Shown here: positions 32,473 through 61,687 of the stretch, piece after piece
How positions within the stretch are numbered: position 1 is the first letter of the stretch
How the letters are laid out: each line of letters starts with the position of its first letter
Assembly (NCBI GenBank): GCA_965261735.1
Contig: OZ253470.1
Coordinates: 2,208,001 to 2,272,000, forward strand
Length of the DNA: 64,000 nt
Source of the DNA: Alphaproteobacteria bacterium
Lineage (GTDB): Bacteria; Pseudomonadota; Alphaproteobacteria; SHVV01
Direction of reading: 5' to 3'
Notes under the pieces: model-generated
Database searches by the model: none
Told to the model about the DNA's origin: nothing
Seen by the model: the letters and a program-made list of their open reading frames with translations, nothing else
Program-made: the position numbers and the translations under genes

Positions 32473-33577
32473 CTTGCCTATCCGGTTAACACCCATGGCC
32501 GCTACATGTAGGGTGCCACCACTCTCCCGAGTAAAGCTCGGCATAGGTTGGAGCAGAGGTGTCGCCCGCGATGCCGAGCAATGAGCGGAAGGCGTTGAAC
32601 GGGTAGAACCGCCTGTTGAAGCGGAAGGTGAACTCGTTGAGGTAGGCTTGTAGGTGCTGGTGGCTAACGCCGTGGTGGATACCGATCAGCCACGTCTTCA
32701 GGTTGGCGAAAACCAGATGGATGATCGGCAGGTATTGCTCGGCAACCTCTGGATCACCACACTCGGCAACAGCGAAGTGCTCATAGCCGCGCTTCCCGAG
32801 GCCAGCATAGCCGCTCCAATCGTCAGTAACGATCAGCGATCGCGGCGCGACGGTGCTCTCGACGAACCCACAGAGCGACTCGGCGCTACGGTCGAGCACG
32901 ACGGCGAGCCGAACGCGTCCGGCATAGCGTCCGTCTTTCCGGTTGTCGAGCTTGGTGCCCGGCTTTCGATGACGCACCTCGATGGCACAGGAGACGGGAA
33001 CCTTGTGGTGAACACCACGGCCTTCCCCACGCGTTCGCCCGCCAACCCAGGTTTCGTCCACCTCAACATGGTTCTTGGGCTGTCCACCGATCCTGTCTTG
33101 GTTGGGCCGCACCATGCCCGAGCGGAGCTTGTGGAGAATTTGAAAGGCCGTCTCGTAGCGCGAAAGACCAAGTTGCCGCTGAAACTGCACGGCGGACATG
33201 CCGGGCGTCTGACTGGCGACCAGATAAGCGGCCCAGAACCAGACGTTCAGCGGAGTGTGGCTACGCTCCATCACTGTTCCCACCGTCAGCCCGGTGTTCT
33301 GGCGGCACTTGCGGCAGCGCAGGACGCCAGGGCGGTTTTCAAAGTGGAACGGCTCTCCCGCCGTGCCGCAGTGCGGGCAGGCAAAGCCGTCTCCCCAGCG
33401 GGCTTTCTCCAGGTAGGCGGCGCAGGCCGCATCATCGGGGAAAAGTCGCTGGAACTCGGGTAGCGAATGCGGGAATGGGAGATCGGCGCGGTCGAGAACA
33501 TCCATGGCGCGCTCCCCTATATCCGGGTTGCGCCCATTCTAGCCCTAGTGGGTGTGGGTGTAAACCGGATAGGCAAG
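32473..33577 (-). mobile_element. IS1595 family full-length copy
   Basis: 1105 bp, same IRs; no TSD (CTTCGTAA vs GGCGTATC). Confidence 0.94.
32486..33505 (-). CDS. IS1595 family transposase (intact)
   Basis: Zinc ribbon CPHC/CRKC, VEVDETWVGG, TDDWSGY and YLNEFTFRFNRR. Confidence 0.94.
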   Translation of the reverse strand: MDVLDRADLPFPHSLPEFQRLFPDDAACAAYLEKARWGDGFACPHCGTAGEPFHFENRPGVLRCRKCRQNTGLTVGTVMERSHTPLNVWFWAAYLVASQTPGMSAVQFQRQLGLSRYETAFQILHKLRSGMVRPNQDRIGGQPKNHVEVDETWVGGRTRGEGRGVHHKVPVSCAIEVRHRKPGTKLDNRKDGRYAGRVRLAVVLDRSAESLCGFVESTVAPRSLIVTDDWSGYAGLGKRGYEHFAVAECGDPEVAEQYLPIIHLVFANLKTWLIGIHHGVSHQHLQAYLNEFTFRFNRRFYPFNAFRSLLGIAGDTSAPTYAELYSGEWWHPTCSGHGC

Positions 33578-44597: not shown

Positions 44598-46876
44598 TTA
44601 TCCGTATGGCATCGCGCCGGTCAACGTCGATCTCTGCCGGGCCCCGGCAGCGGCGGATATGCCGGATTCCGCACCGCCCGTCGGACCGTCCAGCCACTCG
44701 TCCAGCTTCGACCAGCGCCGGCGTCCCGAGGCGTTGCGCACCGCGATGGCGACCGCCTTCTTCTGGCCCACCAGCACCACCAGCCGCTTGCCGCGCGTGA
44801 CCCCGGTGTAGAGCAGGTTCCGCTTCAGCATCGCGTAGTGCTGGGTCAGCACCGGGATCACCACCGCCGGATACTCCGAGCCCTGGCTCTTGTGGACCGT
44901 CGCGGCGTAGGCCGGCACCAGCGTATCCAACTCGCCGAAGCCGTAGAGGAGATCGCGGCCCTCGAACCGCGCGGTCAGCTCGCCGGCGTCTGGATCCACA
45001 TCGGCGACGAGCCCGATGTCGCCGTTGTAGACCTCCTTGTCGTAGTCGTTCTCGATCTGCATCACCTTGTCGCCGGGGGCAAAGGTCCAGCCGAAGCGCT
45101 CGACCTTCCGTTCGCCGGCTGGGTTGAGCGCGGCCTGCAGTTCGATGTTGAGCGAGCGGGCGCGGGCGCCGGCGCCGCCCCGGTTCATCGGGCACAGCAC
45201 CTGGATGTCCTGCATGGCGTCGAAGCCGAAGCGCTGCGGGATACGGGTCTTCACCAGCTCAACGATGCGGGCCGCCGCCGTCTCGGGATCCTCGGCCGGC
45301 ACGAAGTAGAAGTCGCTGTCGCCCTCGGGCCGGGAGAGGTCGGGGATAGCGCCTCGGTTGATACCGTGGGCGGTGGTGACGATCCGGCTTCGCGCCGCCT
45401 GGCGAAACACCTCGGTCAACCGCACCACCGGCACTGCGCCGGAGGCGATGATGTCGGCCAGAACCTGGCCCGGCCCCACCGAGGGCAGTTGGTCGACGTC
45501 GCCCACGATCAGGAGGGCGGCTTCGTCGGGGACCGCCGCCAGCAGCGCCCGCATCAGCATCACGTCCACCATCGACGTCTCGTCGATCACCAGCAGGCCG
45601 CAGTGGAGCGGGTTGTGCGCGTCGCGCCGGAACCCGCCGTTCCTGGGATCGACCTCCAGCAGGCGGTGGATCGTCTTCGCCTCCAACCCGGTGGCCTCGC
45701 TCATCCGCTTGGCCGCGCGCCCGGTCGGCGCGCACAGCAGGATATCGACGCCCTTGGCGGACAGGATGCGCAGGATCGAGTTGACGATCGTCGTCTTGCC
45801 GACGCCCGGTCCGCCGGTGATGACGGAGACCTTCGAGGAGAGCGCCGCGCGTACCGCGTCGGCCTGGCCGGGCGCCAGGGCGAGCCCGGTCTTGCCCTCC
45901 ACCCAGGGCAGGGCCTTGCTCGGGTCGATGTCGGGCCATGGGAGATTGCCGGCCGCAATCCCCAGAAGACGCCCGGCGATCGCGCGTTCGGCCCGGTGCA
46001 GGCCGCCGAGGAATATGGAGGGGATCTCCACCACCGTGTCGGCAACCACCGTGCCTTCGGCCAGCTCCAGGTCCAGCGCGGCGCGGATCAGCTCGCCGAA
46101 CCTCCAGGAGTTTGGCCGCGAGCGGTCCGAGCTCTTCTTCCGGCAGGCCGCAATGACCCTCGTCCATCGCTTCTGTCAGCGCGTAGCCGATGCCCGCGCG
46201 GACCCGGACCATGGCCGTCTTCGCGAAGCCGAGCTTCATCGCGATCGCGTCGGCGGTCACGAAACCGATGCCGCGGATGTCGCGCGCGAGGCGGTACGGG
46301 TTCTCCGTCATGACCTCGACCGCATCGGCGCCGTAGGTCCGGGAATATCCGCACCGCCCGCGCCGTGCCGACGCCGTGGCTGTGCAGGAACACCATGATC
46401 TCGCGGATCACCTTCTGCTCGGCCCAGGCATCGGTGATCCGCTTCGCCCGCACCTTCCCGATGCCGGTCACCTTGCGCAGGCGTTCGGGCTCGGCCTCGA
46501 TGACGTCAAACACCTTCTCGCCGAACGCCCGGACCAGCTTGCGGGCATAGACCGGGCCGATGCCCCGGATCGTGCCGGAGCCGAGATACTTCTCGATGCC
46601 CTCGACCGAGGACGGCTCGGAGGTGCGCATGAAGCGCGCCTTTAACTGTTGACCGTGGGTGCGGTCGTTGACCCACTCGCCCGAGGCGGTGATCCACTCC
46701 CCCGGTCCCACCATGGCGGCATGGCCGACCACGGTCACCAGGTCGCGATGCCCCCGCGCCTTCGTCCTCAGGACGCAGAAGCCGTTCTCCGGATTGTGGA
46801 AGGTGACGCGCTCGACCAGACCGGCCAGGACCTCCCGGTCCGAGGACTCTGGATGCTGGCCGGCGCCGGGTTTCAC
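44598..46876 (-). pseudogene. recD2: ATP-dependent RecD2-like SF1B helicase with two frameshifts (about 46340 and 46095)
   Basis: VERVTFHNPENGF, GIGP HhH, ENPYRL, GGPGVGKT, DETSM, GDVDQL and TVHKSQGSE, spread over three frames. Confidence 0.88.
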
Positions 46877-47262: not shown

Positions 47263-50030
47263 CCCGACCTCTCTCTTCTACAATGACCCTCTACCGCGCC
47301 CATCCGCGCCCATTCGCGGAAGTCCGGTCGGACGCAGGCCGGCGTCCGTCGACACGGCAGTTCAAGCCGCTTCCCATGCCAGCCGCCCGGCGCGCAATCC
47401 CGATCCCGGCGCCCTGCAGACGATATCTTCCTCGCTCCGCCATCCGGGAAACCCGGTCACCCCGGCCCGAACAATGCATCGATATCCTCTTCGGTGAGCG
47501 CCAGGGGGCCTTCACCCGTTCCTTCGAACAATGCGTCCGCGAGGGCCTGCTTGCGGATCTGCATCTTCTGGATTGCCGCCTCGACGGTATCTTCAGCAAT
47601 GAGACGATGTACGAATACTGGCTTGTCCTGGCCGATCCGGTGCGCCCGGTCCATGGCCTGCCGTTCCACCGCCGGGTTCCACCAGGGGTCGTAGACAATG
47701 ACGGTGTCGGCAGCGGTCAGGTTGAGACCCGTGCCGCCCGCCTTCAGGCTGATCAGGAACAGCGGCAGGTTTCCCGACTGGAAGTTCGACACCTGAACGT
47801 CACGGTCCTTCGTGCTGCCGTGCAGCATGGCATAGTCCCAGCCGCGGGCGGCGACGTCGCCTTCGATCAGTCTCAGCATCTTTACGAACTGGGAGAAGAT
47901 CAGGATGTTTCGCCCTTCGGCCACGAGTTCCTCAAGCAACGCGAAGAGGCGCGCCCGCTTGGCGCTCTCGGTCACCTTGCGGGCAGAGTCGAGCCGGACC
48001 AGACGCGGATCGCAGCAGACCTGCCGCAGCTTCAGGAGCGCGTCGAGAATCGTGATGCGGGATGCGGCCAGGCCCCTCGCCGCGATGGCGTCGCGGATCC
48101 GCGCATCCATCGCCGTCCTGATGCTCTCGTAAAGCGCGGCCTGGCCGCCTTCGAGAGGGATGAGCTCGTCGATCACCGTCTTCTCGGGAAGGTCGCGGGC
48201 GACCTGCTCCTTGGTGCGCCGCATCAGGAAGGGCTTGATCCGGGTGGAGAGCAGGCGCTGTCTCGCGCGGTCGCCCCGCTTCTCGATCGGAGTTCGATAG
48301 TCGGCCGTGAAGGATTTTCGGTTTCCGAGCAGGCCGGGGATCAGCCAGTCATAGAGCGACCACAGCTCCCCGAGATTGTTCTCGAGCGGCGTCCCGGTCA
48401 GCGCCAGACGCTGCCGGGCCCGAACGTCCCGGATACGTTTGGAGACGGCCGCAGCCGGGTTCTTGACCGTCTGTGCCTCGTCCAGGATGGCGGTGTCGTA
48501 GTCGTGGCCGAACAACGCTTCATGGTCCCGGTTCAAGAGCGGATAGGTCGTGAGGACGAGATGGTGGTTAGGGATTTCAGAAAAGCGCTGCCGCCGGTCG
48601 GGCCCGTGAAGCACCAGGAGCTTCAGGTCCGGGACGAAACGTGCGGCCTCCCGTTTCCAGTTGCCGACCAGACTTGTCGGCACCACCACGAGGCTCGGGC
48701 GGTCGGTCCTCTCCTCAAGGTGCCGATGGGCGAGCAGGGCGAGCGCCTGCACGGTCTTGCCGAGCCCCATGTCGTCGGCAAGCATGCCGCCGAAGCCGCT
48801 GTCGGAGAGCGCCCTCAGCCAGCCGTAGCCGGCGCGCTGATAGGGACGCAACTCTCCGCGCAGCGCGGCGGGGGCCGGCAGCTCCGGGGCCTCGGAGAGA
48901 GACCGGAGGCGGGCGCCGAGATCGAGCAATTCCCGGCCCCCGGTCCACGGCGCACCGCAGCCCTCCAGGGCTTCGGCCAGTTCGGACAGGCGGCCCGCCT
49001 CGGCCCGATGGAAGCCGAGCAGCCCCTGCGCTTCCAGAAAGGCCTCGGCGAACCGCGCGAACCGTGCCCCGTCAATCGCAAGATACGTCCCGTCCTCGAA
49101 TCGGGCATGGATGACCCTGCCGGCAAGATGCCGGTCGACGTCGAAGCCGTCTTCCAGCTGTCCCCATTCGTTCACGGGCAGGGCGTCGACGATCTGCAGG
49201 ACGATCGGCGAGATGTCGAACGTCTGGCCGTTCGCCTCAAGCGACAGGGCAAGCGAGAACCAGTCGGAGTCCGACGATTCCAGCGCGGTCGAGAACGCGA
49301 CCGGCCCCTCGTAAATGCGGAACGGCCCTGTCTTGTCGATCTCGACGCGCCAGCCCTCGGCGCGGAGCGCGGGAAGCGTCCGCGAGACGAATCCGATGCC
49401 GGCCGCGGCCGCCTCCCCGTCGTCCCCGTCCCGGAGCGGCGGAAAGACGAAATCCGCATCGAGCACCCCGGGCAGCAGCCGGATCTCGTGACGCAGCGCG
49501 CTTGGATCCTCGCCGCCATGGCGCTTCGCCTCCTGCACGAGCGCCTCCCGGAAGCCGGCTTCCCGCACGGGATCGCGCCGGATGACGGCGGGACGGCAGT
49601 CGCCGTCGGCCTGGAGGCCGCCGATCCCGCCGGGCCGCAGCCGCCTCCCGGCACCCTCGTAGGTGATCTCCAGCCGGGCGCAGGGAAAGACGGCCGAAAC
49701 GTCTTTGCCGGGGCCCCTGCGGTATTCGCCAGGCGCGTACAGGGTCACGTTCTGCTCGCAGCCGTAGAGCGTCAGGACCGGTTCGGGCCGCACATCGGTG
49801 CGCTCCTCGACACGTTGCAACCGGGGCACGGGCGCATGCTGGCCGACCCGCGACAGTTTCGCCGTGACCGTCCCGACCGATTCATGCGGCACCGGCGGAG
49901 CGGAGGCGAACCAGGGTAACGATTCGGTCGTGCCGGGATGGGGGGCGTGTTCGTCATGATCCTCCACGTAATGGGGTAACCCTCAACAACTCACTGGTAA
50001 CGAGATTCGTCATGCCCTATCGTCAAGCGC

Positions 50031-52274
50031 ATGGTGGCTCGCGACGAGGATTTTGACGCGGCGCTGACGCTGGCCCAGGAGAGCGACGGGACTTGGTCGC
50101 CCTCTGAGGCCGTGCCGTCGCGCGAGCCGCGCGACTGGCGCCCGCGGTTTGAGCAGGAGCGTGCCCGCGCCGACCGGGACCGGGAGCGGGCAGACGCGGC
50201 GGAGGCGCGCCTTTCGAAAGCCGCTGTCGAGTCGGCGAAGCGCCGTAAGGTCGTCTCGCCGTCCGGGCAGGTGAGCCGACTGCAAAAGGAGAACGCTCGG
50301 CTGTCCAGGGAGGCCGCTCGGCTGGACAAGCGGCTGGCCCTCGAATCGCAGTCGTCGGAGAGCCACAAGGAGACCATTAGGTCACAGAACCGCGAGATCA
50401 TTCGTCTCGTTGCGGAGTTGAGGCGATTGCGCGACCAGAAGGATACGGTCAAGCGGCTGTCCGAAGAGGCCTACCGACTGCGCTTTGCCCGGCTGCTGCG
50501 TGCGACCGAGGCGGTGCGGTCGAAGTCGCCGCCCCGCGATACCGCTGAGCTGCGCGCGGCTTTAAGACGATCACGGCGCCAGAAGACAACGATCAGGTCG
50601 CTGAGCAAGGAGAACGCCCGGCTGCACAGGACGGTGCGGAGGTCGGAGACCCGCAAGGAAGCGCTGAAGGGCCGGCTTGCCAAACTTCGCGCAGGGAAGA
50701 CGCTGTCCGACACCGTCGGCGATCTGCGCAAGGCCCTTTCAAGATCGCGGCGCCAGAAGACGACGATCAAGTCGCTGGGCCAGGACAATGCCCGGTTGCA
50801 CAGGGCGGTGCGGAAGTTGGAGACCCGGAAGGCGGCGTTGGAGTCTCAGCTTGCCAGGCTCCGCGCGACCGGGACGACCCTGTCGAAGGCGCTCTTCGGG
50901 CGCCGGAGCGAGCAGCAGGAGAAGCCGCGCTCGGAGCGCAAACGCGGCCAGCAGCGCGGTGCTGCCGGCCATGGACGCACCCAACGGCCCACGATTGAGG
51001 AAAGGACGGAAGAGCACAACCCGTCGCCGGACGAGCGCGTCTGTGCCTGCTGCGGGAAGCCCTACGTGGCGAACGGCGCCGAGGAATCCACCCTCATCGA
51101 GATCGAGGTCCAGGCCCACAAGCGCGTCATCCGCCGTCCGAGGTGGCGCCGGGGCTGCACTTGCGAATCGTCGCCGCGGGAGGTGTCGGCCCCCCCGGTG
51201 CCGCGCCTGTTCGACAATACGCCCTACGGGATCAGCGTGTGGGCGCGCGTGCTCTTTGAGCGCTGTGCCTACTTCCGCCCGCTGAACCGGGTCGCGGCCT
51301 GGCTGTCGGACCAGGGGCTGGCGATCTCACCGGGGACACTGGGCGACAGCGAGAAGCGGTTCGTGCCGATGTTCGAACCGGTGGCCGAAGCGATCCTCGC
51401 GCACCAGAACAAGGCGGCAGTGCGCCACGGGGACGAGACCGGGTGGCGCATCCACTCGCTACGCGAGCAGGGCCGGTCGAGCCGCGCCTGGCTGTGGACC
51501 TCGGTCAGCAACGACGCGGTCTACTTCCACATCGACCCCTCGCGCAGCGCCGAGGTTGCGAAGACGCTGTTCGGCGCCGTCATCGGCATCGTGTTCCTGA
51601 TCTGCGACCGCCTCTCGACCTACAAGAAGATGGCGCGCGAGCTCGACGGCAAGGTGGTTCTGTGCTGGTGCTGGGTCCATCACCGCCGCGACTTCATCCA
51701 CTGCGCTGCCGGCCAGGTGCGCATGACGCAGTGGTGCCAGGCATGGATCGAGCGGATCGCGTCGATTTACCGGCTGAACGAGGCGCGACTGATCCACTAC
51801 GACCCTTGTCGCGACCGGCAGAGAGCGGCCTTCACCGCAGCGCAATCCGAGCTGAAGGCGACGGTCGACGATCTGTTCTCAGGGGCCGAACGGGAACTGG
51901 CCGCCCTGCCGCCGGAGGCGCGCGAGGGCAAGGCGCTGCGCTCTCTGGTGAACCACCGCGAGGGGCTGAGCGTCTTCGTCGACCGGCCTCAGGTGCCGAT
52001 GGATAATAATGCGGCCGAGCGCGCGCTCAGAGGTCCAGTCATAGGAAGACGGCTGTCGTTCGGCTCCGACAGCGAGACCGGCGCGCAGTTCACGGCGCTG
52101 ACGTACTCCGTGCTGGGCACTCTCGCGTTGAACCGCATCGACGTCCTGCGCTGGCTGGAAGCATGGCTGGGCGCGTGCGCGGAGAATGGCGGTCGACCAC
52201 CGGACGACCTGTCGCCCTGGCTGCCATGGTCGATGGACGAGGAACGCAGACGCGTCCTGACGGCGTCAGGATGA
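50031..52274 (+). CDS. IS66 family DDE transposase (TnpC-like) with extended coiled-coil N-terminus
   Basis: LFGRRSE, KRGQQRGAAGHGR, zinc finger CACC..CTC, HGDETGW, ICDR and MDNNAAERALR. Confidence 0.9.
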   Translation: MVARDEDFDAALTLAQESDGTWSPSEAVPSREPRDWRPRFEQERARADRDRERADAAEARLSKAAVESAKRRKVVSPSGQVSRLQKENARLSREAARLDKRLALESQSSESHKETIRSQNREIIRLVAELRRLRDQKDTVKRLSEEAYRLRFARLLRATEAVRSKSPPRDTAELRAALRRSRRQKTTIRSLSKENARLHRTVRRSETRKEALKGRLAKLRAGKTLSDTVGDLRKALSRSRRQKTTIKSLGQDNARLHRAVRKLETRKAALESQLARLRATGTTLSKALFGRRSEQQEKPRSERKRGQQRGAAGHGRTQRPTIEERTEEHNPSPDERVCACCGKPYVANGAEESTLIEIEVQAHKRVIRRPRWRRGCTCESSPREVSAPPVPRLFDNTPYGISVWARVLFERCAYFRPLNRVAAWLSDQGLAISPGTLGDSEKRFVPMFEPVAEAILAHQNKAAVRHGDETGWRIHSLREQGRSSRAWLWTSVSNDAVYFHIDPSRSAEVAKTLFGAVIGIVFLICDRLSTYKKMARELDGKVVLCWCWVHHRRDFIHCAAGQVRMTQWCQAWIERIASIYRLNEARLIHYDPCRDRQRAAFTAAQSELKATVDDLFSGAERELAALPPEAREGKALRSLVNHREGLSVFVDRPQVPMDNNAAERALRGPVIGRRLSFGSDSETGAQFTALTYSVLGTLALNRIDVLRWLEAWLGACAENGGRPPDDLSPWLPWSMDEERRRVLTASG

Positions 52275-53152
52275 CCGGCGCCGTCGAGTGCCGCTACTAC
52301 GGACGCGACTTCAGCGCCGAGGAAATGGCGCTGCTGCGCGCGCTGATCGCCGGCCCTCCGCCGCTGAACCGCCACGCCCTGTCGAAGGAGTTCTGCCGGC
52401 GCATCCGCTGGCTCAAGCCCGATGGCGGGCTCAAGGACATGATGGCCAGGGTGACCATGCTGGCCTTGCACAAGGACGGCCTGATCGCGCTGCCGGCGCC
52501 GAAGTGGCGGCAGAACCGGCCAAAGCCGATCGTCTTCGGACCGGAAACCGAGCCGCCGCTGTTCCCGGCGCCATCTACCCTCGACGAGGTCCGTCCGCTC
52601 GACCTGCGGACCGTCGCTCGCGGCACCCAGGAGGGCAAGCTGTGGAACGAGTTCGTCGCCCGCTACCACTATCTCGGCTACAGCACCCTGGTCGGCGCCC
52701 AGATGCGCTACGCCGTCCACGACAGAAACGGCTGGCCGCTCGCCATGCTCGGCTTCTCAACCGCCGCGTGGAAGCTCGCCCCGCGCGACACCTTCATCGG
52801 ATGGACGCCGCAGCTGCGCGAGAAGAACCTACCCCTCGTCGTCGACAACCCGAGGTTCCTCATCCTGCCCTGGATCGAGATCCCCAACCTCGGCTCGCAC
52901 ATCCTCGCCCTAATCCGCCGGCGCCTGCCCGACGACTGGACCGAGCGCTACAACACAACGCCCGTGCTCATCGAGACCTTCGTCGAAACGCCGCGCTACA
53001 CCGGACACGTCTACAAAGCCTCCGGCTGGCTCCGTGTCGGAACTACCCAGGGCCGGGGACGCTACGACCGACACACGAAGCGCGCCCAGCCGAAAAAGGA
53101 CATCTGGCTCCGGCCCCTGAAAAAAGATTGGAAGCGGACACTCAACCGATAA
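52271..53152 (+). CDS. DUF4338 domain (Druantia DruA-like) protein
   Basis: RYHYLGY, RDTFIGW, NPRFLILPW...NLGSHIL, DW.ERY..PVLIETFV and G..YKASGW..VGTTQGRGR; ATGA overlap with the transposase stop. Confidence 0.82.
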   Translation: MTGAVECRYYGRDFSAEEMALLRALIAGPPPLNRHALSKEFCRRIRWLKPDGGLKDMMARVTMLALHKDGLIALPAPKWRQNRPKPIVFGPETEPPLFPAPSTLDEVRPLDLRTVARGTQEGKLWNEFVARYHYLGYSTLVGAQMRYAVHDRNGWPLAMLGFSTAAWKLAPRDTFIGWTPQLREKNLPLVVDNPRFLILPWIEIPNLGSHILALIRRRLPDDWTERYNTTPVLIETFVETPRYTGHVYKASGWLRVGTTQGRGRYDRHTKRAQPKKDIWLRPLKKDWKRTLNR

Positions 53153-53615
53153 AATCAGTGGCCTATCCCGGCACGACCGAATCGTTACGAACCAGGACGC
53201 CATCCGGGGCGACAGCGACGTTTCGGCGACACCGGTCTCCCCGGTTGCGGGATCGAGGAAGAACGGTGACGGGAACGGCAGCAGCGTCATGGTGGAACCG
53301 GCGCCGTCGCGCGCCACGATCGACTGCTCGCCGGCCGGGCCGACCTCCCAGGCGAGATCGAGCCTCCGCGGCGGCGACCACGACAGGGCCATGCCCCGGA
53401 TTTCGTGAGCCCGGGCGCGGCCCGTCTCGACGATTTCACGCACGAGGCCGGTCAGCTCTTCGCCGTCCGGCCAGTCGTAGCTCGGCTGAAAGCCGCCATC
53501 GGCAAAGAAGTCGAGCTTCCCGAGGATCGCGGCGTCCTGCACGGTCAGGTTCTTCCGGGCCCAAGACGATCGGCGGTTGAATTCCTGGAAGTTGGAGCCG
53601 ATCGTTTCATCCTTC

Positions 53616-54535
53616 CTTGCCTATCCGGTGTACACCCACACCCACTAGGGCTAGAATGGGCGCAAACCGGATATAGGGGAGCGCGCCATGGATGTTCTCG
53701 ACCGCGCCGATCTCCCATTCCCGCATTCGCTACCCGAGTTCCAGCGACTTTTCCCCGATGATGCGGCCTGCGCCGCCTACCTGGAGAAAGCCCGCTGGGG
53801 AGACGGCTTTGCGCTGCCGCAAGTGCCGCCAGAACGCCGGGCTGACGGTGGGAACAGTGATGGAGCGTAGCCACACTCCGCTGAACGTCTGGTTCTGGGC
53901 CGCTTATCTGGTCGCCAGTCAGACGCCCGGCATGTCCGCCGTGCAGTTTCAGCGGCAACTTGGTCTTTCGCGAACGCGTGGGGAAGGCCGTGGTGTTCAC
54001 CACAAGGTTCCCGTCTCCTGTGCCATCGAGGTGCGTCATCGAAAGCCGGGCACCAAGCTCGACAACCGGAAAGACGGACGCTATGCCGGACGCGTTCGGC
54101 TCGCCGTCGTGCTCGACCGTAGCGCCGAGTCGCTCTGTGGGTTCGTCGAGAGCACCGTCGCGCCGCGATCGCTGATCGTTACTGACGATTGGAGCGGCTA
54201 TGCTGGCCTCGGTAAGCGCGGCTATGAGCACTTCGCTGTTGCCGAGTGTGGTGATCCAGAGGTTGCCGAGCAATACCTGCCGATCATCCATCTGGTTTTC
54301 GCCAACCTGAAGACGTGGCTGATCGGTATCCACCACGGCGTTAGCCACCAGCACCTACAAGCCTACCTCAACGAGTTCACCTTCCGCTTCAACAGGCGGT
54401 TCTACCCGTTCAACGCCTTCCGCTCATTGCTCGGCATCGCGGGCGACACCTCTGCTCCAACCTATGCCGAGCTTTACTCGGGAGAGTGGCGGCACCCTAC
54501 ATGTAGCGGTCATGGGCGTTAACCGGATAGGCAAG
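53616..54535 (+). mobile_element. IS1595 copy with two internal deletions (920 bp) and 8-bp TSD CATCCTTC
   Basis: Both IRs present; TSD at 53608-53615 and 54536-54543; 185 bp shorter than full copies. Confidence 0.92.
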
Positions 54536-54848
54536 CATCCTTCTTCAGATAGGCCCTGTAGGGCGTGATGCACATGCCGCGCACCCGATCCCGGTGGATG
54601 ACGTAGAACAGATGCTCCTGTCCTGGCGCCGGAGGGCCCGGCGGCCGGACCTCCAGCGCGGGGGCGATCCTTCCGGGCCAGAGATCGAGCCACCGGCTGA
54701 CCTCGCCCGGCAGAAGGGCGGGGTCCGCCGGGCCGTGTGCCCCGGTCCGGCGCTCCGACATTCCCCGCGCGTCAAGCAGCAGGGCGGCGACATGCTTGCA
54801 GTTGAAACCCACCGGGCAGGAACAATGCCCCTCGACCCGGCCAGGCAT

Positions 54849-54860
54849 CGGATAGGCAAG
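54849..54860. repeat. Isolated 12-bp tip of the IS1595 IR (CGGATAGGCAAG)
   Basis: Exact match to the IS terminus, located where the SWIM-SNF2 gene loses its 5' end. Confidence 0.65.
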
Positions 54861-54868
54861 GAAGGATC

Positions 54869-56223
54869 ATGAGAGAACCTTGCCTATCCGGTTAACGCCC
54901 ATGACCGCTACATGTAGGGTGCCGCCACTCTCCCGAGTAAAGCTCGGCATAGGTTGGAGCAGAGGTGTCGCCCGCGATGCCGAGCAATGAGCGGAAGGCG
55001 TTGAACGGGTAGAACCGCCTGTTGAAGCGGAAGGTGAACTCGTTGAGGTAGGCTTGTAGGTGCTGGTGGCTAACGCCGTGGTGGATACCGATCAGCCACG
55101 TCTTCAGGTTGGCGAAAACCAGATGGATGATCGGCAGGTATTGCTCGGCAACCTCTGGATCACCACACTCGGCAACAGCGAAGTGCTCATAGCCGCGCTT
55201 ACCGAGGCCAGCATAGCCGCTCCAATCGTCAGTAACGATCAGCGATCCCGGCGCGACGGTGCTCTCGACGAACCCACAGAGCGACTCGGCGCTACGGTCG
55301 AGCACGACGGCGAGCCGAACGCGTCCGGCATAGCGTCCGTCTTTCCGGTTGTCGAGCTTGGTGCCCGGCTTTCGATGACGCACCTCGATGGCACAGGAGA
55401 CGGGAACCTTGTGGTGAACACCACGGCCTTCCCCACGCGTTCGCCCGCCAACCCAGGTTTCGTCCACCTCAACATGGTTCTTGGGCTGTCCACCGATCCT
55501 GTCTTGGTTGGGCCGCACCATGCCCGAGCGGAGCTTGTGGAGAATTTGAAAGGCCGTCTCGTAGCGCGAAAGACCAAGTTGCCGCTGAAACTGCACGGCG
55601 GACATGCCGGGCGTCTGACTGGCGACCAGATAAGCGGCCCAGAACCAGACGTTCAGCGGAGTGTGGCTACGCTCCATCACTGTTCCCACCGTCAGCCCGG
55701 TGTTCTGGCGGCACTTGCGGCAGCGCAGGACGCCAGGGCGGTTTTCAAAGTGGAACGGCTCTCCCGCCGTGCCGCAGTGCGGGCAGGCAAAGCCGTCTCC
55801 CCAGCGGGCTTTCTCCAGGTAGGCGGCGCAGGCCGCATCATCGGGGAAAAGTCGCTGGAACTCGGGTAGCGAATGCGGGAATGGGAGATCGGCGCGGTCG
55901 AGAACATCCATGGCGCGCTCCCCTATATCCGGGTTGCGCCCATTCTAGCCCTAGTGGGTGTGGGTGTAAACCGGATAGGCAAGAGAGAACTTTCGGCGGC
56001 AAGTAAACATTTGGCTTGCCTTGAGGCCAAAGCCTACCAAATTGGAGGTGGAGTTTCTACGCTCGCCTCAATCCTGAGGCGAGAGAGGTCCGTAGATGGT
56101 TATGTATTCGACAATGACGATTGGCCCGATGGGTATGAAATAGAGAATCTTTTCTTGGATATGGCTGCCACTAAGGCAACAATATCCAAACTCACGAACC
56201 AGAAGGAAAGCCTAGGCATCTAA
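54869..56223 (+). pseudogene. Small (~80 aa) hypothetical gene interrupted at codon 3-4 by IS1595
   Basis: GAAGGA RBS plus ATG AGA GAA C at 54869; continues after the IS as RELSAASKHL...KESLGI; TAATG coupling to the next gene. Confidence 0.55.
54879..55983 (-). mobile_element. IS1595 full-length copy with intact transposase (54892-55911)
   Basis: 1105 bp; duplicated AGAGAAC on both sides (8 bp GAGAGAAC if the terminal G is shared). Confidence 0.94.
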
Positions 56224-57368: not shown

Positions 57369-57691
57369 GTAGTCCGCCTACTCCGACGAACCGCGGATCG
57401 CAGTGTACTCCGGGGACTGGTCCCGAGAACTCTGCTACGGTCGGCTTCTTTTGCTCTACGAGATCAAAGCCGGAACTGGAGCAGACTGCCAGCGAGCAGA
57501 ACAGCTCGCCGACGCCCTTCCTTCGCTTGTCACGGTTGACCAACAACGGCAGGCCGAGCGCCTCTTCAGAGCTTCTGATAATCGAGCTGAGGCCCTTTCT
57601 CCTGAGTCCTTACGCTTTATTGCAACAGCTGAGCATGTCGCAGCGCAACTGGAATTGAACGCACAGCTTGAGTGGTCACCCGCTGTAATAG

Positions 57692-59043
57692 GCGGTAGCG
57701 CATGCGATGGCGATGCTTGCGGAAGAAGGCGAGTTCCCGCTCGGTCTCGGCCCGGTCGGGCGCAGCGGCGGCATCGCGAAGGTGGCGCAGCGCCCGGATC
57801 ACCTTGGCGACGCCACGGGGATCGTGACGGAGGATCTCGCGGTACTTCTCGAACCAGCCGGGCGCCACGGCATGGTCGGACGCGGTTTGCAGATGTTCGC
57901 AAGCATGCCAGAAGTCGATCACCTCGGTTTCGGGCGACAGGGTCTCCAGGAAGGTCCAGTTGTCGGCGGCGCCATCGGCGATAGCGACGATCCCGATCTC
58001 GGGGCGTGCTCGCCTGATGTGTGCGACTTCGCTTGCAAGCTGCGCCTTCAGCGTGAGCTTGCCGCTCTCCGGCATGGGGCCGAGATAGAGGGTCTTCAGG
58101 CGCTTGCCCTCGGCGTCGTGGAAGGAGACCGTGCCGCAGGCGGCCTCGCGCCAGGAGGCCTTGGCGCGACCGTCCTCGCCGGGTCTCAGCGGCACCATGA
58201 CGCCGTCGAGGGAGACCGAGGCGGTGGTCGCGTCCTGCGGTATGCCCTCGGCCTCACGGATGCTGCCCAGCGTCTCCGGGCCGAGGCTCTCCCAGCATTC
58301 GTGCATGCTCAGGGTCAGGCGCTGCAGGGTGCTCACCGACGGCGTCATGGCGCCGGTCTTCGCAAAGAACGCCGCCGCTTCCCGGGCCGTGCAGCGACCC
58401 ATCATCAGCAGACCGAGCTCGGCCGCCGGCCGCGTCAGGTAATCGTCGACGAAGCCCAGGCTCTCGTCGACCGGCACCGGCGATGCCCCGCTCGCGCCGC
58501 TGCGGTAACGCGCTCGCCGGTAGGTCACCGGACCGAGCGAGGTCATGATCGTCTTCGGCGTCACCGCGACCCGGAACCAGCTCTGCCCGTCCCGCTCGAT
58601 CCGGGAAGCGCCATCGTCCCGGTTCTCGATGACGGCGCCCATGACATCGCGAGCGAACTCGTTCGTGGCCTCACGCACCCGCAACTCGACCTCCTCGGGC
58701 ACCTCGGGGCGCGGCTCGGAACGAAGCTCCTCGCGACACAGTGCGAGCACCCGGGCGGCCGCCTCGACGACCCGAGGAGGCAGGCCGGAAAGATCGATGG
58801 ACGAAGGCGCCGGAGGCGGGGATACTGCCATGGGAATGCCCCCGATGTTGGGTTTCGAGACACGGCATCGTACCGCTTCTGGCGGTGCGGAGCGTTCCCA
58901 CCTTCCCCTGCTCGACCCTGCCGTCGTGACAAAATCCTGCCTTGGAGCGGCCCATTGTCACGAATAGCCGTTTTCGGCCGTTCGTCTCGACACAAAAACG
59001 CACTAAATCAATGACTTGGATTTTCCATACCAGACCCACACCC
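57692..59043 (-). mobile_element. ISKra4-like element, 3'-truncated (transposase 58831 to about 57692)
   Basis: SLDGVMV, WREA, IADGAADNW, IDFWHACEHL and RMRY; the final catalytic Glu region is missing; the left end begins GGGTGTGGGTC at 59043. Confidence 0.78.
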
Positions 59044-60533: not shown

Positions 60534-61686
60534 TAGTGGATTGATCGGAACGAAAGAGTCCGATTTGAGATTCCGTATTGTGCGGTGTCATGCGAGTCTG
60601 TGCTATGCGCACCGGCATCCATTTTACTGTCACGTCTGGCGACCGTCAGCGATTGCAAGCTATCGTCGCGGACCCGAAGAGCTCGCAGAAACATGTCTGG
60701 CGGGCGCGGATCATCCTGAAGAGCGACGAGGGGCTCGGGAACTCGTCGATCATGGCCGAGACCGGCAAGTCCAAGACCTGTGTCTGGCGCTGGCAGGAGC
60801 GGTTCATGCACGAGGGTGTCAACGGCTTGCTTCGCGACAGGTCCCGTCCGCCTGGCAAAGCGCCGATCCCGCCGGAGCGCGTCGCCGAGATCGTCCGCCT
60901 GACCCAGCAAGCGCCGCCGCACGAGGCGACCCACTGGACGCTGCGCGCGATGGCGAAGGTTGCTGGCGTCGCGGCGTCGACGGTCCAAGCGATCTGGAAG
61001 GCCCATGGCCTCAGCCCGCACCGCTGGCGGCACTTCAAGCTCTCCAATGATCCCGCCTTCGCCGAGAAGCTCACAGATATCGTCGGCTTGTATGTCGATC
61101 CGCCGGCCCATGCCGTGGTGCTGTCGGTTGATGAGAAATCACAGATCCAGGCGCTCGACCGCACCCAACCCGGCTTGCCGATGAAGAAGGGCCGCGCCGG
61201 TACGATGACCTATGATTACAAACGGCATGGCACGACGACGCTGTTCGCCGCGCTCAACGTGCTGGACGGTACGGTCATCGCACAGAACATGCAGCGCCAC
61301 CGCCATCAGGAGTTCATCCGCTTCCTCAACCGCATCGAGCGCGAGGTGCCGACGGACAAGGCCGTCCACGTCATCCTCGACAACTACGCCGCGCACAAGA
61401 AGGACAAGGTCCGCGCCTGGCTCGCCCGCCATCCACGCTGGACCTTCCACTTCACGCCAACCTCGTGCTCGTGGCTCAATGCCGTCGAGGGCTTCTTCGC
61501 CAAACTAACGCGGCGCAGGCTCAAATACGGCGTCTTCCAATCCGTCGTCGACCTTCAGGCCCCCATCAACCGATTTGTCCGCGAATACAATGACGCAAAC
61601 CCAAAACCCTTCATCTGGAAAGCCGACCCCGATCATATCATCGCCGCACGAAACAGAGGGTTCCAAACGTTGGAATCAATCCACTA
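60534..61686 (+). mobile_element. IS630 family element in a CTAG/TA target
   Basis: CTAGTGGATTGAT...ATCAATCCACTAG ends. Confidence 0.9.
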
Positions 61687-61687
61687 G
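60605..61687 (+). CDS. IS630 family transposase
   Basis: SVDEKSQIQAL, YKRHGTTTLFAAL, ILDNYAAHK and SWLNAVE. Confidence 0.94.
   Translation: MRTGIHFTVTSGDRQRLQAIVADPKSSQKHVWRARIILKSDEGLGNSSIMAETGKSKTCVWRWQERFMHEGVNGLLRDRSRPPGKAPIPPERVAEIVRLTQQAPPHEATHWTLRAMAKVAGVAASTVQAIWKAHGLSPHRWRHFKLSNDPAFAEKLTDIVGLYVDPPAHAVVLSVDEKSQIQALDRTQPGLPMKKGRAGTMTYDYKRHGTTTLFAALNVLDGTVIAQNMQRHRHQEFIRFLNRIEREVPTDKAVHVILDNYAAHKKDKVRAWLARHPRWTFHFTPTSCSWLNAVEGFFAKLTRRRLKYGVFQSVVDLQAPINRFVREYNDANPKPFIWKADPDHIIAARNRGFQTLESIH

Follow-up and report, generated by a model that had tools for sequence, protein, structure and literature searches.

The element and its insertion site

The window analysed here is a stretch of 64,000 nucleotides from an alphaproteobacterial genome (GenBank assembly GCA_965261735.1, contig OZ253470.1), and positions are counted from its first letter. 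An IS66-family element of 3273 bp lies at 49916-53188 of this window. By direct reading it contains two genes only, tnpC for the transposase and a gene for a protein with the DUF4338 ('DruA') domain, which are joined by an ATGA overlap at 52271-52274. It interrupts a gene for an SNF2-type helicase. The features of the element and its target are as follows (ORF, open reading frame; IR, terminal inverted repeat; aa, amino acids).

47457-49915, minus strand: interrupted SNF2-type helicase gene, C-terminal part of about 820 codons (PF00176, E 2.7e-63; PF00271)
49908-49915: left copy of the target-site duplication, 8 bp GAACCAGG, identical to 53189-53196
49916-49942, plus strand: IR-L, left IR, 27 nt, 96% complementary to 53162-53188, tip GTAAC
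50031-52274, plus strand: tnpC (ORF1), IS66-family DDE transposase of 747 aa (PF03050, E 5.1e-57; NF033517, 272 bits, the NCBIfam equivalog cut-off being 180 bits)
52271-53152, plus strand: DUF4338 gene (ORF2), 293 aa (PF14236, E 1.7e-39), with its start overlapping the tnpC stop
53162-53188, minus strand: IR-R, right IR, 27 nt, which pairs with IR-L (repeat search and direct reading)
53189-53196: right copy of the target-site duplication, 8 bp GAACCAGG
53197-53542, minus strand: N-terminal part of the same SNF2 gene, about 115 codons, the frame of which joins that of 47457-49915 after in-silico excision

Elements of the IS66 family duplicate 8 bp of their target and have IRs that start with GTAA, and canonical members, such as IS66 and IS679, carry tnpA, tnpB and tnpC. 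An IS66-type DDE transposase, an 8-bp duplication and a GTAA tip are all found in the element analysed here, and the outer 24 nt of its two 27-nt IRs are perfectly complementary. The left tip is separated from the tnpC start by 115 bp and the stop codon of ORF2 is followed by 36 bp, and therefore there is no room for tnpA or tnpB. The remaining ORFs in the ORF list overlap the two genes in other frames of GC-rich DNA.

Excision of the element and one repeat copy by script gives a continuous SNF2 frame of 934 aa. Contigs from four of four public runs, which belong to four studies, join position 49906 to 53188. These contigs, one of which is 1422 nt long, skip 3281 bases, namely 3273 plus 8, and nine letters fit either side of the join. 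This result indicates that close relatives of the organism carry the unoccupied site. The element is a genuine and recent insertion. The sequence-only reading, an earlier description of this DNA made from its letters, had proposed a complete IS66-type transposon with two genes only, and the IRs, the 8-bp duplication, the ATGA overlap and the empty site in all four runs bear this proposal out.

The transposase and its clade

TnpC has a variable coiled coil of about 300 aa at its N-terminus and a DDE domain at aa 399-686. The coiled coil is the most variable part of the protein, with 27-39% identity among relatives. An internal tandem duplication lies within the region that encodes it (50522-50866, plus strand; 171 nt, 74% identical, spacing 174).

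The catalytic part of TnpC (aa 301-747) was searched against 401 sampled genomes of the class. The matches have 69-75% identity, and after these there is a gap down to 32% or less. Thirty loci were fetched, of which seven are of high identity (six foreign loci and the window) and 23 are of low identity. DUF4338 is located directly downstream of TnpC at all seven high-identity loci (at least 69%; 6/6 of the foreign ones), and TnpB upstream of it at none of them. At the low-identity loci (32% or less), DUF4338 is located downstream at 0 of 23 and TnpB upstream at 18 of 23. No TnpB is seen at L152, L159, L165, L170 and L172, and two of these loci, L165 and L172, are truncated at the end of a contig. 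One canonical locus, L166, comes from an unpublished genome (G621), and the TnpB count is 17 of 22 when it is left out. These counts indicate that the DUF4338 gene is an accessory gene tied to a separate transposase clade. Judged from sequence identity, the TnpC of the element is a member of a sharply separate clade of the IS66 family.

Strict pairing of the two genes in related elements

Of the candidates scored, 5973 are related to the DUF4338 protein at E<=0.001, and 8279 clusters formed at 50% identity match it. The best 120 relatives are at least 74% identical to it, 119 of them at least 80%. The 79 related loci are found in alphaproteobacterial metagenome-assembled genomes, with 13 of them on one 6.03-Mb chromosome. 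At all 79 loci TnpC-homologous sequence ends 18 nt or less from the DUF4338 start, and an ATGA or GTGA overlap is present at every complete DUF4338 start examined. TnpC is truncated or interrupted at some of these loci (for example L034, L040, L055, L069, L072, L080 and L100). The statement of the sequence-only reading that the DUF4338 gene travelled with the element is supported by this strict linkage to the TnpC clade (79/79 related loci and 7/7 high-identity loci).

Within the related loci, an IR pair is present around 71 of 91 full-length gene copies. Thirty-one of the 91 have a perfect 8-bp duplication as well, each distinct. For the other 60, no clean duplication is seen; some of them lie at the edge of a locus or are nested or tandem copies, and a simple script may have missed others. 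The related elements are 3182-3749 bp long, and their IRs are 24-157 nt long. Among the 31 relatives with a duplication, the IR tip is GTAAG in 21, GAAAG in six, GTAAC in three and GTATC in one.

Selection on the two genes was compared in 17 elements, for which 64 of 136 pairs are usable, the others being dropped because indels broke the ungapped comparison. In these 64 pairs the median omega (ratio of nonsynonymous to synonymous substitution rates) is 0.215 for the DUF4338 gene, at 86% amino-acid identity, and 0.402 for the catalytic part of TnpC, at 71% amino-acid identity. The nonsynonymous rate (dN) is lower in DUF4338 than in the catalytic part of TnpC in 60 of the 64 pairs. The DUF4338 partner is more tightly constrained than the transposase.

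The element is intact and belongs to a distinct, active IS66-family branch with two genes, in which one gene, for a DUF4338 protein, stands in for tnpA and tnpB. We tentatively read this protein as an obligatory transposition partner that probably modifies DNA. This reading seems possible rather than probable, and the evidence on both sides is given below.

Some related elements differ in their ends or their arrangement. Five of them (L036, L038, L043, L047 and L102) have perfect IRs of 146-157 nt with the tip GAAAG. In such long-IR lineages the right end is repeated in inverted form as the left end, and the repeated part takes in about 38 codons from the 3' end of the DUF4338 gene. Head-to-tail tandem copies are seen at L046 (2385-9594), L056, L058, L083, L086, L090 and L097. 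At L046 there are two copies of 3601 bp with 8 bp between them (GCCTACCC), and the pair is flanked by these same 8 bp. A megablast search of the element against plasmids gives no match.

Association of DUF4338 with other transposases

A profile search of long proteins (560-2000 aa) gives 2179 relatives of the DUF4338 protein at E<=1e-10. Among the best 120, which were examined, 62 contain PF03050 (IS66), 57 contain Tn5-type domains (PF14706, mostly with PF02281) and one contains neither. These proteins represent natural architectures, in which DUF4338 is fused with transposases of two unrelated families, because many separate clusters have lengths near 808 aa or 775 aa. They are named merely 'IS66 family' or 'IS4 family transposase' in their sources, an annotation that hides the DUF4338 domain.

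In a sample of 401 genomes of the phylum, PF14236 is detected in 26, and a transposition gene (transposase or TniQ) is adjacent to it or fused with it at at least 16 of 30 loci. The partner is an IS66 TnpC upstream at two loci, both in the element's own genome, an IS66-type transposase downstream at L123, L124 and L144, a Tn5-like transposase at L122, L125 and L138, a UPF0236 protein at L120 and L121, a DDE_Tnp_1 transposase at L128, L130, L132, L136 and L145, and TniQ at L119. Long multidomain proteins are found at L133, L134 and L135, and the other 11 loci are short contigs, have other neighbours or are unexamined.

These partners bear on the alternative that the DUF4338 gene is cargo that benefits the host or the carrier, either as an anti-restriction shield for the host or its carrier plasmid, like Mom of phage Mu, or as a stand-alone gene for DruA-like defence or counter-defence. 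Mom shields Mu DNA against restriction (available text of PMC7261163 and PMC13219725), Pfam and PADLOC place the domain under Druantia, and a 2024 paper in Nucleic Acids Research (NAR) lists this GNAT domain among the variable N-terminal domains of DndF (available text of PMC10853773). However, the flanks of the element are the two halves of one SNF2 gene, so that no druB-druE genes, including the large helicase gene, are adjacent to it, and the PADLOC DruA model (407 positions) matches only aa 111-235 of the protein (E 5.4e-7). The element is therefore not a Druantia system. Furthermore, one would not expect cargo to form in-frame fusions with a transposase, as are seen in 119 of the best 120 long relatives, to be present in every copy of multi-copy elements, or to be under tighter constraint than the transposase. 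The gene is unlikely to be cargo. Stand-alone defence had been one of the options offered by the sequence-only reading, and it is the least likely of these options, because Druantia partner genes are absent and most instances of the domain are in fusions or couplings with transposases of several families. These results point to a helper of transposition rather than a phage-defence gene, as assumed in the reading of DUF4338 as a transposition partner.

Four further observations concern the distribution of the domain. At L119 (G319:C1:2600364-2604227), the PF14236 match, which has the best score of the phylum sample (E 9.4e-68), is located directly 3' of the TniQ-domain gene, and this position hints at a link to Tn7- or Tn5053-like transposons. 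A Thiodictyon plasmid carries DUF4338 with an IS4-family transposase, split by an IS91 insertion. In a second plasmid the DUF4338 match lies within a gene annotated 'ISAs1 family transposase'. A protein of 1013 aa (P0220) is matched to the DUF4338 protein by phmmer but has no Pfam hit.

Fold of the DUF4338 protein

In the AlphaFold model, which is based on an alignment of 35 sequences, the protein is predicted to consist of a strand-and-helix domain at aa 1-75, a linker and a GNAT core at about aa 105-293, with a predicted local distance difference test score (pLDDT) of 91.8. Foldseek gives 236 hits of this model against the PDB at E<=0.001, and among the matches listed all are GNATs. The top hit is SpeG (E 4.1e-6), the further top hits include RimI, RimL and a protein acetyltransferase, and Mom with the S124A substitution (8bv8_B) is ranked fourth (E 6.9e-6, TMq 0.41). 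A search of BFVD is led by phage proteins without characterisation (E 7e-9), with a protein named Mom in seventh place. When PF14236 clusters are excluded from a search of the ESM-Atlas, the three best named clusters are all PF25680 Mom, with scores of 0.90, 0.88 and 0.87. A phmmer search against PDB sequences gives 0 hits at E<=10, and NCBIfam contains no family that covers the 293-aa protein. DUF4338 has already been termed a GNAT domain in the 2024 NAR paper (available text of PMC10853773). The GNAT fold that the sequence-only reading had suggested for ORF2 is supported by the 236 Foldseek hits of the predicted structure. According to the model, the DUF4338 protein is composed of an N-terminal helical domain and a GNAT fold, and its nearest named GNAT relative, remotely, is Mom of phage Mu.

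The N-terminal domain is conserved across all transposase contexts examined. The structural hits obtained for it are weak, the best of them being to Myb-like, homeodomain, MarR and Fur domains (E about 1-3), and DNA binding by this domain is therefore a tentative suggestion. The label 'winged helix' was considered for it and set aside as unproven, as no Foldseek match is significant. Complex prediction for TnpC aa 301-747 with the DUF4338 protein gives a score of 0.00 against a mark of 0.32, and this result, obtained without controls, speaks neither for nor against binding.

The structural matches bear on another explanation, in which the DUF4338 protein is a protein acetyltransferase. It would still be an obligatory helper, and would acetylate the transposase or a host DNA-architectural protein as an on/off switch. 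The majority of GNATs act as acetyltransferases on amines of proteins or small molecules, and SpeG, RimI, RimL and a protein acetyltransferase are among the top PDB hits. The coupling, the fusion and the constraint suit any cis-acting regulator. On the other hand, the acetyl-CoA motif of GNATs is Q/R-x-x-G-x-G/A, and by sequence reading the loop after strand 4 (PNLGS) does not contain it. Moreover, the named family nearest to DUF4338 is that of Mom, an enzyme that acts on DNA with the use of Gly-tRNA. In addition, it is unlikely that one substrate lysine is common to the IS66, Tn5-like, UPF0236 and DDE_Tnp_1 transposases. We regard this explanation as unlikely, and retain as a tentative preference the reading in which DNA is modified.

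Residues aligned with the active site of Mom

According to a 2026 study, Mom modifies adenine N6 of double-stranded DNA in a reaction that depends on Gly-tRNA(Gly). It is dimeric, its helix-turn-helix-like insertion is essential, and its active site is lined by H58, Y59, R111, S124, D149, R151 and Y159 (available text of PMC13219725, in which residue numbers exceed those of the Mu record by 10). When the DUF4338 alignment is compared with 27 Mom proteins by hhalign, an E of 0.0039 is obtained over 158 columns, which span the whole GNAT domain. The reversed controls give E values of 0.31 and 0.44 over 13-14 columns, and the comparison with the single Mu Mom sequence is weak (E 0.029). Conservation of the aligned residues was counted in 157 DUF4338 proteins, of which 35 are stand-alone and 122 are fused.

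Mom H58: H133 here, 35/35 stand-alone and 122/122 fused
Mom Y59: Y134 here, 28/35 stand-alone and 118/122 fused
Mom S124: S209 here, 34/35 stand-alone and 122/122 fused
Mom D149: E239 here (D or E counted), 32/35 stand-alone and 117/122 fused
Mom R151: R242 here, 30/35 stand-alone and 118/122 fused
Mom Y159: Y248 here, 33/35 stand-alone and 122/122 fused

Thus, six of the seven active-site residues of Mom align with near-invariant DUF4338 residues in this remote alignment. In addition, the last two strands are connected by a loop of some 16 aa, in which T259-x-G261-R262-G263 aligns with GG-x-RG in the essential insertion of Mom.

The conservation of these residues is relevant to the view that the DUF4338 protein acts as an architectural partner without catalysis. 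Its N-terminal domain would bind the ends of the element, while the GNAT fold would serve only as a scaffold for dimerisation or docking in the role of TnpA/TnpB. DUF4338 stands in the place of TnpA/TnpB, its two-domain build is kept in all transposase contexts, and Mom, which has the same fold, is a dimer, all of which would suit such a scaffold. However, near-invariance of the Mom-type catalytic residues over 157 proteins is unusual for a dead enzyme, and this view is improbable.

GNAT toxins that acetylate aminoacyl-tRNA exist. The DUF4338 protein could accordingly be imagined as a toxin-like addiction module that acts on charged tRNA and penalises loss or silencing of the element, the more so as Mom uses charged tRNA (PMC13219725, available text). 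Against this, the two-gene element contains no antitoxin gene, in-frame fusion with a transposase is ill-suited to a freely acting toxin, and up to 13 loci coexist in one genome, which makes such a module very improbable.

Proposed role of the DUF4338 protein

Production of the DUF4338 protein is translationally coupled to that of the transposase. In the reading that we tentatively prefer, the protein would act within the transposition machinery, not as cargo. It would transfer an acyl or aminoacyl group onto nucleic acid in the manner of Mom, with DNA at the element ends, at the target or in a transposition intermediate as the likeliest substrate. Such a modification would license, time or protect transposition.

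Several results weigh against this reading. The link to Mom is remote, with an hhalign probability of 8.5%, and the hidden Markov model (HMM) of Mom, PF25680, gives no hit at E<=10 on aa 101-293 and 0 matches in the element's own genome. R111, which is essential in Mom, falls in a two-residue gap of the alignment, and the DUF4338 loop that connects the last two strands has about half the length of the essential insertion of Mom. By Foldseek, Mom (E 6.9e-6) is not distinguished from acetyltransferases of the SpeG type (E 4.1e-6), and the ESM-Atlas scores of 0.90, 0.88 and 0.87 are borderline by the tool's own statistics. When the N-terminal 90 aa are modelled alone (pLDDT 80.5), 0 of 314 Foldseek hits reach E<=0.001. 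DUF4338 pairs with several unrelated transposase families, and a protein contact peculiar to one family is therefore less likely. Finally, the element's own 5.03-Mb genome contains just one intact copy plus decayed fragments. The likeness to Mom that the sequence-only reading had drawn from the C-terminal pattern therefore stands in part. Mom is the nearest named GNAT family, and the NLGS, ETFV and YKASGW..VG segments align with the region of its catalytic Ser, Asp/Arg and Tyr residues, but the relationship is remote (hhalign E 0.0039, with no Mom HMM hit).

A broader proposal is that DUF4338 is a Mom-type enzyme that marks DNA chemically, with charged tRNA or an acyl compound as the donor, for at least four DDE families (IS66, Tn5-like, UPF0236 and DDE_Tnp_1). 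Transposons that carry the enzyme or are fused with it would place an epigenetic mark of their own on ends, targets or intermediates, as a self-encoded licensing layer, and DruA would by extension be the DNA-marking component of type I Druantia that has been missing. This proposal is speculative, and we consider it unlikely as it stands. If the enzyme marks DNA, it would represent a new class of transposon-encoded DNA modification and would provide a concrete hypothesis for DruA.

IS66 elements are common, and their mode of movement is poorly understood. A branch that has exchanged TnpA/TnpB for one enzyme-like partner offers a handle on the accessory function. Tn5-like transposases are well studied and are fused to the same module, so that the idea is testable by standard assays. 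The label 'DruA/Druantia' is misleading for this domain, as most relatives seen here are in transposons, and programs that look for defence genes may score insertion sequences as genes of immunity. Our literature search found no paper that joins DUF4338/DruA with IS66 or with transposases; supplements and ISfinder lie outside this search, and the arrangement may be catalogued there. Judged by title or abstract, the papers that name IS66 together with GNAT are not relevant, and among the papers listed none treats the chemistry of DruA.

Candidate signals in the element and surroundings

Two candidate signals are located near the ends of the element.

49990-50036, plus strand: conserved block 5' of and including the tnpC start, CTGGTAAC ... 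GCTAYCGTC ... GCGCATGG
53128-53155, plus strand: sigma-70-like outward-facing site, TTGGAA-16-TAAAAT across the DUF4338 stop codon, a consensus match only

In the left ends of 15 elements, the block at 49990-50036 recurs in short-IR elements and is absent from the long-IR types L036 and L102. It holds a subterminal repeat of the IR tip (GGTAAC), and is a candidate promoter or subterminal transposase site, as judged from its letters; a strict promoter scan does not call it. The tnpC mRNA may be leaderless, because the block contains no obvious Shine-Dalgarno sequence. The promoter scan finds two sites, where 0.2 are expected in shuffled sequences, and one of them is 53128-53155. Hexamers like TTGGAA/TAAAAT are present at about half of 15 related right ends. 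The promoter-like site lies 7 bp before IR-R, and if the element formed a circle or a head-to-tail dimer, it would face the next tnpC. Against Rfam, 49500-53600 gives 0 matches at E<=0.1.

The decayed relatives in the element's own genome are located at C1:1952126-1953086 (L002/L010) and at C1:2727992, 3356516, 3262765, 668171 and 247897, and three 146-nt matches lie near 3.22-3.26 Mb. Among these relatives are a DUF4338 gene with a frameshift, next to which no more than about 24 C-terminal codons of TnpC are left, fragments of TnpC, and short pieces that resemble the right end and lie in a repeat-rich region. In the runs X1, X2, X3 and X10, the summed contig depth over 52280-53000 is tens to hundreds of times that over the flanks and the 5' part of tnpC. 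This excess over the DUF4338 gene fits the presence in these communities of many related elements that have the conserved gene in common.

Other features around the element are as follows.

32486-33505: ORF with the coordinate pattern and length (339 aa) of a full IS1595-family copy
44598-46049, minus strand: RecD2-type ORF (AAA_19, SH3_13, UvrD_C_2)
46088-46876, minus strand: RecD2-type ORF (OB_YrrC and HHH)
53692-54522: IS1595-family fragment
54519-54848: SWIM zinc-finger ORF (PF04434, E 7.2e-6), probably the former N-terminus of the SNF2 protein
54892-55911: full IS1595-family copy (PF12762, E 1.8e-37)
57617-58831 and 60578-61687: UPF0236-type fragment and IS630-like DDE_3 gene, in the IS-rich right part of the window

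The SNF2 gene has been struck twice, as IS1595-family insertions at 53545-55911 part its body from the SWIM zinc-finger ORF. The two RecD2-type ORFs together make up a helicase gene that adjoins the SNF2 gene (44598-46876), and the split suggests a frameshift or a sequencing error.

Comparison with known systems

The element shares with canonical IS66 elements a DDE_Tnp_IS66 transposase that scores above the NF033517 cut-off, the 8-bp duplication and the GTAA tips. It differs from them in the absence of tnpA and tnpB, in the long variable coiled-coil N-terminus of TnpC and in the coupled downstream DUF4338 gene. The TnpC of canonical elements is only 24-32% identical to the catalytic part of the TnpC analysed here (class sample). 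The ISBst12 group of the IS66 family has a transposase only. Compared with the general description of this group, the element likewise lacks tnpA and tnpB, but it has a second gene that is conserved at 79 of 79 loci.

The DUF4338 protein and DruA of type I Druantia (PF14236) have the DUF4338 GNAT core in common. Unlike DruA, the protein analysed here is encoded within a transposon and has no DruB-E neighbours. The Tn5-like (IS4-family) fusions and the couplings with IS66-type, UPF0236 and DDE_Tnp_1 transposases contain the same two-domain module with the same invariant residues. In these forms the module is located upstream or N-terminal of the transposase, whereas here it is encoded downstream by a separate gene.

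Mom (PF25680, PDB 8bv8) and the DUF4338 protein share a GNAT fold, as predicted for the latter. In the remote alignment of the two, HY, Ser, Asp/Glu-x-x-Arg and Tyr residues of the active site correspond, and an extra loop with G-x-R-G lies in both between the last strands. The DUF4338 protein differs from Mom in that it is not matched by the Mom HMM, has no residue aligned with R111, has a loop about half as long, and has an extra N-terminal domain. The Mom gene is located at the right end of Mu, a DDE transposable element, as the DUF4338 gene is in the element analysed here.

Transposition of IS10 and IS50 is controlled by Dam methylation, a mark made by a host enzyme. By analogy only, a mark at the ends of the element analysed here would gate transposase binding and expression, and the element would carry its own modifier.

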